Shown here in pieces: positions 36,896-37,066 of a stretch of DNA of 64,000 bases. The position numbers were made by a program, and so were the translations under genes. Location: UHGV virus genome UHGV-1362809; one strand, written 5' to 3'. The stretch is from a virus. The notes under the pieces are model-generated. The model searched no databases. It had not been told where the DNA came from and saw nothing but the letters and a program-made list of their open reading frames with translations. Position 1 is the first letter of the stretch. Every line of letters starts with the position of its first letter.

Positions 36896-37066
36896 TTAGT
36901 TTAGAACCTTATTTGCATCAAAACATTTACGGTCTAAGGATTCCTGTGTTTTACCCTTATTATACTGGGAACGAGGACGATAGTATCCCATCACACGACT
37001 CCAAATTTCCGTTTCGTGTCTTTCTGACTGATGCTGTTCTAAAACCTGTTTTTGTTTTTCTGTCAT
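36896..37066 (-). CDS. free-standing NrdD glycyl-radical domain mini-protein (56 aa)
   Basis: Manual translation gives MTEKQKQVLEQHQSERHETEIWSRVMGYYRPRSQYNKGKTQESLDRKCFDANKVLN. RV.GY...N.GK..E is the class III RNR glycyl-radical signature. AAGGAAG RBS 7 nt upstream. Absent from the ORF track (shorter than 60 aa). Confidence 0.6.
   Translation of the reverse strand: MTEKQKQVLEQHQSERHETEIWSRVMGYYRPRSQYNKGKTQESLDRKCFDANKVLN

Follow-up and report, generated by a model that had tools for sequence, protein, structure and literature searches.

The question raised by this locus is where a class III (anaerobic) ribonucleotide reductase (RNR) carries its radical glycine when the catalytic chain ends before the glycyl-radical loop is reached. 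In the window, by which we mean the whole 64,000-nucleotide stretch of the virus genome UHGV-1362809 that was analysed, a first-pass annotation made from the sequence alone had noticed an nrdD core gene that never reaches an RVxGY motif, followed by nrdG and by a 56-codon open reading frame (ORF) that carries such a motif. We conclude with considerable confidence that this 56-aa ORF encodes the glycyl-radical domain (GRD) of the class III RNR, and that its product is most likely an obligate, trans-acting, non-covalent radical subunit. The operon is arranged on the minus strand in the order nrdD piece 1, nrdD piece 2, nrdG, GRD gene and terminator, with the following features:

39472..40293, minus strand: nrdD piece 1, 273 aa, matching Pfam ATP-cone, NRDD (positions 2-62) and Intein_splicing
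39416..39471, minus strand: gap of 56 nt between the intein halves, with a stop codon, an AGGA ribosome-binding site and a new ATG
37715..39415, minus strand: nrdD piece 2 (the core), 566 aa, comprising the intein C-half, the catalytic barrel, the zinc ribbon and a tail
37098..37721, minus strand: nrdG, the radical-SAM activase, 207 aa (624 nt), matching TIGR02495, Fer4_12 and Radical_SAM
37073..37079, minus strand: ribosome-binding site with the sequence AAGGAAG, 6 nt before the ATG of the mini-gene
36896..37066, minus strand: free-standing GRD gene (the mini-gene), 56 aa, ATG start, product MTEKQKQVLEQHQSERHETEIWSRVMGYYRPRSQYNKGKTQESLDRKCFDANKVLN
36859..36890, minus strand: intrinsic terminator (hairpin and T-run) closing the nrdD-nrdG-GRD operon

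All large ORFs between positions 780 and 64000 of the window are on the minus strand and belong to a replication and nucleotide-metabolism module, with genes for a family A DNA polymerase, a DnaB-like helicase, an SNF2/ResIII helicase, an FtsK-like ATPase, RNase H and dUTPase; the gene calls of matching loci add thymidine kinase and several DNA methyltransferases. A 357-aa ORF (42758..43831, minus strand), some 2.5 kb before the nrdD operon, has the position and length of the S-adenosylmethionine synthetase gene called in loci L164-L169, and it is possible that this gene is a supply line for the radical-SAM activase.

Profile searches of the peptide and of the core, the first of the checks suggested by the first-pass annotation, located the radical domain on the peptide and found it absent from the core. 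The 56-aa product matched positions 531-562 of the 562 positions of Pfam NRDD (E 3.1e-7, 29.9 bits, cut-off 26.2), as expected from the class III glycyl-radical signature previously read in it, and it also matched TIGR02487 (positions 548-579 of 581), NF006126 (positions 649-683 of 684) and, in all, the final ~32 positions of three NCBIfam NrdD models. Beyond an RVxGY glycyl-radical loop the ORF carries nothing; Gly27, within SRVMGYYRP...NKGK..E..DR..F, is predicted to be the radical glycine. The core matched NRDD (PF13597) at positions 52-531 of 562 with an E value of 2e-147 and NF006126 with 787 bits (cut-off 548), and contained no RVxGY. The NRDD profile is therefore partitioned among nrdD piece 1 (2-62), the core (52-531) and the mini-gene (531-562). 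When the six frames of the 64-kb window were scanned with an HMM built from the mini-protein family, the mini-gene was the single match (E 1.2e-27) and no second radical domain was found; since the family HMM matches at this one place only, the NrdD core has no hidden radical loop.

The mini-gene has its own ribosome-binding site, start, stop and terminator, and codes for a small free-standing protein. The first-pass annotation was right about the sequence AAGGAAG, but the spacer to the ATG is 6 nt and not 7. The rho-independent terminator that it had placed after the mini-gene was recovered as an 11-bp stem (36890..36864, minus strand) followed by TTTTT, with a dG of -18.6 kcal/mol and a z-score of -4.2. 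The small protein is poorly served by existing resources: NCBIfam holds no model for it, PHROGs gave a weak match to phrog_4132, 'unknown function' (E 3.9e-4), phmmer with the peptide alone retrieved no PDB sequence at E<=10, and mini-proteins carry source labels such as 'hypothetical protein', 'oxidoreductase' and 'anaerobic ribonucleoside-triphosphate reductase'. No match to PF01228 (Gly_radical) was obtained with the peptide at E values up to 1; its family matches were NrdD C-termini only.

To locate the cut in the chain, the products were compared with Thermotoga maritima NrdD (PDB 4coi), to which the core aligned through the second zinc-ribbon pair, CPVCGK610. The predicted zinc ribbon of the core, CPVH...CPIC, aligned with C...CPVC of the T. 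maritima protein and is kept in all relatives. With the ribbon placed by this alignment, the core runs 12 residues past it (DEEILTREQCKC, 37718..37753, minus strand); it does stop after the zinc ribbon without a loop, as had been noted, but not two residues after it. The mini-protein aligned to residues 614-643 of T. maritima NrdD (DEYMRIVGYLVP..., DEYMRIVGYLVPVSAFNK...), collinear with the core and without overlap, although this match, obtained by concatenating tail and peptide, is a weak sub-alignment of 2.5 bits whose meaning depends entirely on the collinear context. Ribbon and loop are separated by 3 residues in T. maritima NrdD and, in the window, by the 12-residue tail, a stop, the whole of nrdG and ~19 variable residues at the N-terminus of the peptide. 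The glycyl-radical loop is therefore not at the C-terminus of the NrdD polypeptide but in trans, on the 56-aa product. The activase gene that lies between core and mini-gene is intact: NrdG matched TIGR02495 (NrdG2) with an E value of 3e-42 and 144 bits (cut-off 131), its CX3CX2C motif is present as C-ACN-C-DY-C, and the nrdG start overlaps the core stop, as previously described, by 7 nt (ATGCTAA).

Core tails and the C-termini of many mini-proteins (L001, L002, L007, L010 and others) are rich in Cys, with QCKC, KCKICGE and EECCKKKSCK as examples in phage relatives, and the mini-proteins of gut Alphaproteobacteria share a conserved ...C-G-C-x-L-A-A-A-E end. A Cys also stands 8 residues before the glycine in 131 of 160 peptides, the window having Thr at this position. 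Whether these Cys-rich ends and the Cys at -8 form a metal site or a redox shuttle may be asked.

The NrdD chain is interrupted once more, upstream of the core. Residues 1-174 of nrdD piece 1 are the ATP-cone and the N-terminal part of NrdD, and residues 175-273 are an intein N-half of 99 aa that begins with CLSPDT... and holds a TPDH block; piece 2 begins with an intein C-half of 36 aa (residues 1-36) ending in ...VHN and followed by Cys+1, whereas its residues 37-566 are the barrel and the zinc ribbon and then the 12-residue tail. The two halves, spanning 39308..40293 (minus strand) as a split mini-intein, matched TIGR01445 (intein_Nterm, E 1.4e-10) and TIGR01443 (intein_Cterm, E 1.1e-6). 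Thus, the N-terminal blocks are on one ORF and HN with Cys+1 on the next, and they flank a conserved extein site, ...LSGY|CAGWSL..., as aligned to P0223 and P0235, which have a contiguous intein, and to the intein-free P0301. These sequence features make it probable that protein trans-splicing of the split intein links piece 1 to piece 2.

Within the phage population the nrdD intein varies: 1) the window, L164 and L165 have the split intein, 2) L166 has it with a 375-aa DUF723/HypA-like ORF between the halves, 3) L167-L169 and, in the same 90% cluster, P0301 have intein-free alleles of 700 aa, and 4) the more distant relatives P0223 and P0235 have a contiguous intein of ~137 aa. Because the first two ORFs are split-intein halves and the GRD is separate, the NrdD chain of the window consists of three ORFs. 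The first-pass annotation had likewise spoken of an enzyme in three pieces; the number stands for the NrdD chain, but the pieces are the N-terminal piece, the core and the GRD, with nrdG as the fourth gene of the operon. The first NrdD junction is probably healed by trans-splicing and the second, between core and GRD, is permanent. Other mobile elements were observed in the window. A 1176-aa protein (28221..31751, minus strand; MJ0330_N family in relatives) contains an intein with a LAGLIDADG endonuclease domain, and its gene in L166 is intein-free and encodes 708 aa. Two DUF7487 ORFs are located at 14058..15416 and 48718..49962 (both minus strand), the former matching, together with an L001 ORF (6995..7984), the homing-endonuclease family phrog_3339; L164 has a DUF7487 ORF beside a helicase gene, where the other genomes have none.

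An exhaustive HMMER scan of 1.84 billion cluster representatives (50% identity) with the 56-aa query returned 699 clusters at E<=1e-3. The best 150 of these were all 41-124 aa long (median 66), and 147 of them started with Met and three with Leu or Val. Across 160 clusters the motif ER[QT]xCE[VI]W[ST]RVMGYxRPxSx[FYW]NxGKxxExx[DE]RxxF was near-invariant; in the 160 glycine-anchored sequences, mostly <60% identical to the query, invariant or near-invariant positions were E -7, W -5, R -3, V -2 and M -1 before the glycine and Y +1, R +3, P +4, N +9, G +11, K +12, E +15, R +19 and F +22 after it. Among phage relatives pN was 0.10-0.20 against a saturated pS of 0.66-0.94, from which strong purifying selection on the GRD gene follows. 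None of the 120 closest core homologues (60-99% identity), all intact and full-length, contained an RVxGY loop, suggesting that these NrdD cores depend on a separate peptide.

A scan of GTDB with one genome per species gave at least 600 matching stretches, and the best 80 loci comprised six complete fused NrdDs, one fused-looking sequence cut by the contig end (L042) and, for the rest, small ORFs. The taxa were gut Alphaproteobacteria, Sutterella, Holosporales, Acidobacteria, Armatimonadota, Verrucomicrobia, candidate-phyla-radiation bacteria and sulfur-oxidising Gammaproteobacteria. Two cultured examples are Afifella pfennigii DSM 17143 (locus L075) and Kangiella sediminilitoris, which is among the loop-free cores and whose complete genome (GenBank:CP012418.1) has nrdD (675 aa), a called 70-aa NRDD-domain gene and nrdG; a good Shine-Dalgarno sequence (SD) and ATG in the latter genome would shorten the GRD product to 44 aa. 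As judged by these matches, the radical tip is a separate protein of ~56 residues in hundreds of bacteria and phages. No close phage relative was found in 50,697 GenBank phage records, by megablast of the operon or tblastn of the peptide.

Fused NrdDs with the identical radical motif at its normal position also exist. In L045 and L050 the link is short and direct, as in T. maritima, and in L031, L037, L054 and L058 it is a linker of ~30-45 residues that resembles the split tail plus the peptide N-terminus. Since these fused relatives have the same motif, the split is not required for function, and the two fused forms suggest that linker expansion with fission, or re-fusion, took place repeatedly.

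In glycyl-radical enzymes the glycine becomes accessible to the activase only when the radical domain has moved out of the barrel; once activated, this domain sits beside the finger-loop cysteine. In the mechanism that we propose, pieces 1 and 2 would be trans-spliced to an NrdD core of ~700 residues with ATP-cone, barrel and zinc ribbon and no radical site; NrdG, a radical-SAM enzyme, would abstract a hydrogen from Gly27 of the small protein; and the activated peptide would sit in the barrel by the finger-loop cysteine, like the C-terminal hairpin of T4 or T. maritima NrdD, where it would start nucleotide reduction. As the only radical domain that the enzyme has, the peptide would be an obligate subunit and not a back-up. 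This reading agrees with an activase that is intact, a core that retains its zinc ribbon and a loop that is perfectly conserved. Glycyl-radical enzymes are cut by oxygen at the radical glycine, and by analogy a likely benefit would be cheap repair, in that oxygen would cost only the 6-kDa peptide of 56 residues, for which a fresh copy could be supplied.

Structure prediction was consistent with the fold. AlphaFold modelled the spliced N-terminal piece, core and peptide as one chain, from a shallow unpaired alignment of 36 rows, with an overall pLDDT of 72 and a good barrel; the finger loop had a pLDDT of <50 and the peptide (residues 705-760) was modelled as helices at ~50-59, its placement being of low confidence. 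Core and peptide concatenated without an alignment gave a pLDDT of 36.7. In Foldseek, the top 36 matches of the reassembled-chain model were all class III RNR chains, the best being 9d3x, 8p23, 4coi and 1h7a.

The mini-gene also occurs apart from its enzyme. In 94 of the 162 loci fetched for the peptide scan, the 6 kb to each side of the GRD gene contained no NrdD core, and in almost all of them no nrdG either (L003, L005-L009, L029, L033, L039, L043, L083-L128 and others); these were mostly IMG/VR contigs of 30-47 kb. Their neighbours were typical of temperate phages, namely lysozyme, integrase, Mu GemA, DUF3164, M15 peptidase, GH108 endolysin and reverse transcriptase. Bacterial coreless loci were from the same taxa whose chromosomes have the split operon, and the coreless peptides were 52-92% identical to host operon peptides (90-92% within Sutterella). 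Judging from these neighbourhoods of 6 kb to each side, coreless mini-genes may be phage auxiliary 'spare-part' genes, the cartridge alone being used with a host core. A core can also stand on the opposite side of the GRD gene, as it does 2.6 kb away in L132 and L133.

More tentatively, and with somewhat more doubt than belief, we consider that the GRD is a diffusible and exchangeable 'radical cartridge' that would receive its radical away from the enzyme and be replaced once oxygen has damaged it, a modularity that viruses would exploit in two ways: jumbo phages would carry the whole three-part enzyme, and many temperate (Mu-like, integrase-bearing) phages of gut Alphaproteobacteria and Sutterella would carry the cartridge gene alone, recharging or commandeering the host core during infection. 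If true, it would extend spare-part or obligate trans radical subunits beyond the formate lyases for the first time and add a new type to the auxiliary genes of phages.

The same coreless phage genes could be read otherwise. Because temperate phages carry the gene with neither core nor nrdG within 6 kb, as would fit manipulation of a host enzyme, the small protein might not be the catalytic radical carrier but a regulator or decoy that titrates NrdG or blocks the barrel, the core having another radical source. We regard this as improbable, since all residues that define a radical loop are kept (R-V-x-G-Y, N-x-G-K and E), the core has no alternative radical site and yet keeps its activase and zinc ribbon, and the fused relatives carry the identical motif where a catalytic loop is expected.

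There is even less to be said for a single polypeptide, in which the peptide would be joined to the core by recoding (read-through or frameshift) or by RNA or protein splicing, and we give it very little weight. It is true that nrdD of the window is already interrupted upstream by an intein, and that the GRD ORF was in the frame of the core in 17 of the 62 loci that have both, only the core stop intervening in 12 of these 17. However, the frames of the GRD relative to the core were evenly spread (17, 24 and 21 loci for 0, +1 and +2), all three stop codons were used by the cores, and the GRD genes in these loci have their own SD and ATG, usually 10-60 nt downstream of the core. On these frame and stop-codon statistics, read-through or frameshifting was rejected as a general explanation, and in the window it is precluded by the 624-nt nrdG between core and mini-gene. 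As for splicing, an Rfam scan of 36500..40600 at E<=1 detected no group I or II intron, only three chance-level sRNA/snoRNA matches, and the core tails and peptide N-termini, both variable, contained no intein blocks. Also against joining, the GRD gene of L132 and L133 precedes the core by 2.6 kb, and many loci have no core within 6 kb. Taken together, the position of nrdG, the frames, the stops and the lack of intron and intein blocks make splicing or recoding at the core/GRD junction very unlikely.

Nor is the arrangement an artefact of assembly, which the first-pass annotation had named, with read-through and frameshift, as a way in which it could be wrong. At least 24 contigs from independent samples, a number of which reach 207-235 kb, encode the identical 56-aa peptide, and the phage carrying it is a jumbo phage with a genome of ~235 kb; in each such locus fetched (L164-L169) the GRD gene follows nrdG with the same spacing. 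The layout of the window is shared by relatives that are 57-91% identical, and ten free-standing relatives are 56-86 aa long and 63-91% identical. The expectation that related phages would show the same layout was borne out by L001, L002, L084 and L087, which have the order nrdD-nrdG-GRD; in L001 a homing-endonuclease gene separates nrdG from the GRD gene. Many bacteria have nrdD-GRD-nrdG, which is their usual order.

Gene decay, whereby mobile elements would have fragmented nrdD and left a dead RNR with 56 codons as a remnant, is hardly credible: such elements do abound here (the split intein in nrdD, the LAGLIDADG intein in the 1176-aa protein and the homing-endonuclease-like ORFs) and fragmented nrdD genes of unknown status have been reported in phages (PMC3653736), but the motif is near-invariant over 160 clusters with low pN at saturated synonymous sites, the mini-gene has its own ribosome-binding site and terminator, all 120 nearest cores are intact, full-length and uniformly without the loop, and the same architecture recurs in many bacterial phyla, complete genomes included.

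With an obligate radical subunit in trans as the preferred reading, this lineage offers a naturally occurring case of an essential enzyme of DNA-precursor synthesis whose radical domain would always be a separate 6-kDa protein. It makes testable how an activase gains access to a buried glycine, whether activation off the enzyme is followed by docking, and how anaerobes keep down what oxygen damage costs them; the cultured hosts K. sediminilitoris and A. pfennigii make such experiments practical. For annotation, loop-free NrdDs are labelled as complete reductases, and the whole lineage would be overlooked or misread in any census that asks for a radical glycine in NrdD.

To our knowledge, characterised glycyl-radical enzymes have the radical glycine on the catalytic chain, with GrcA/YfiD (and Y06I of T4) as the sole exception. 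A survey of phage RNRs in 2013 attributed split nrdD genes to introns, inteins and unexplained fragmentation and never mentioned the radical domain (PMC3653736), a 2015 review of RNR evolution tabulated 'glycine in enzyme' for class III, and analyses of RNR extensions in 2022 treated the GRD as the C-terminus. Reviewers of the field have raised the question of spare parts for further glycyl-radical enzymes (PMC8683613), and a review of June 2026 still gave the formate lyases as the only enzymes with known spare-part proteins (PMC13450708). In the searchable full-text literature outside subscription journals, no description of a separately encoded NrdD radical domain was found, in agreement with the earlier remark that, to its author's knowledge, the arrangement had not been described for NrdD.

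Activated forms of GrcA/YfiD of E. coli and of Y06I of T4 restore cleaved pyruvate formate-lyase (PFL), and like the mini-protein they are small free-standing glycyl-radical domains, one of them phage-encoded (PMC8683613). GrcA/YfiD is activated by the activase of the parent enzyme and completes a barrel that has no working radical domain, and by this analogy the mini-protein probably works like GrcA. The first-pass annotation, which had called it an analogue of this spare part, was therefore probably right about the mode of working but not about kinship or role: GrcA is a PFL-type domain (PF01228, IPR011140) of ~14 kDa that backs up an oxygen-damaged full-length enzyme, whereas the peptide of the window is derived from NrdD, is 6 kDa in size, has no PF01228 match and is the partner of a core that has no radical domain, making it most likely an obligate subunit.

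Fractured genes with split inteins and phage RNR genes in pieces (Dassa et al. 2009; Dwivedi et al. 2013) resemble the junction of pieces 1 and 2 only; unlike them, the core/GRD junction of the window shows no footprint of an intein, intron or endonuclease. Among RNRs with a detached C-terminal module, the nearest precedent is NrdJa/NrdJb, the split class II RNR of Pseudomonas aeruginosa and relatives, where an adjacent gene encodes the C-terminal module throughout an entire subclass (PMC5704485, PMC9669993). In that case the module is a Cys-rich zinc-finger domain that shuttles reductant, and not, as here, the radical-storage site. Apart from having its loop in trans, the enzyme of the window shows, by its sequence, every feature of a class III RNR. 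With the canonical enzymes of T4, E. coli, T. maritima, P. copri and S. thermophilus it shares the ATP-cone, the ten-stranded barrel, the zinc ribbon, the RVxGY loop and a radical-SAM activase encoded next door, but in the class III RNRs that have been solved or characterised this loop is the C-terminus of NrdD itself, and in the window it is the product of a separate gene.
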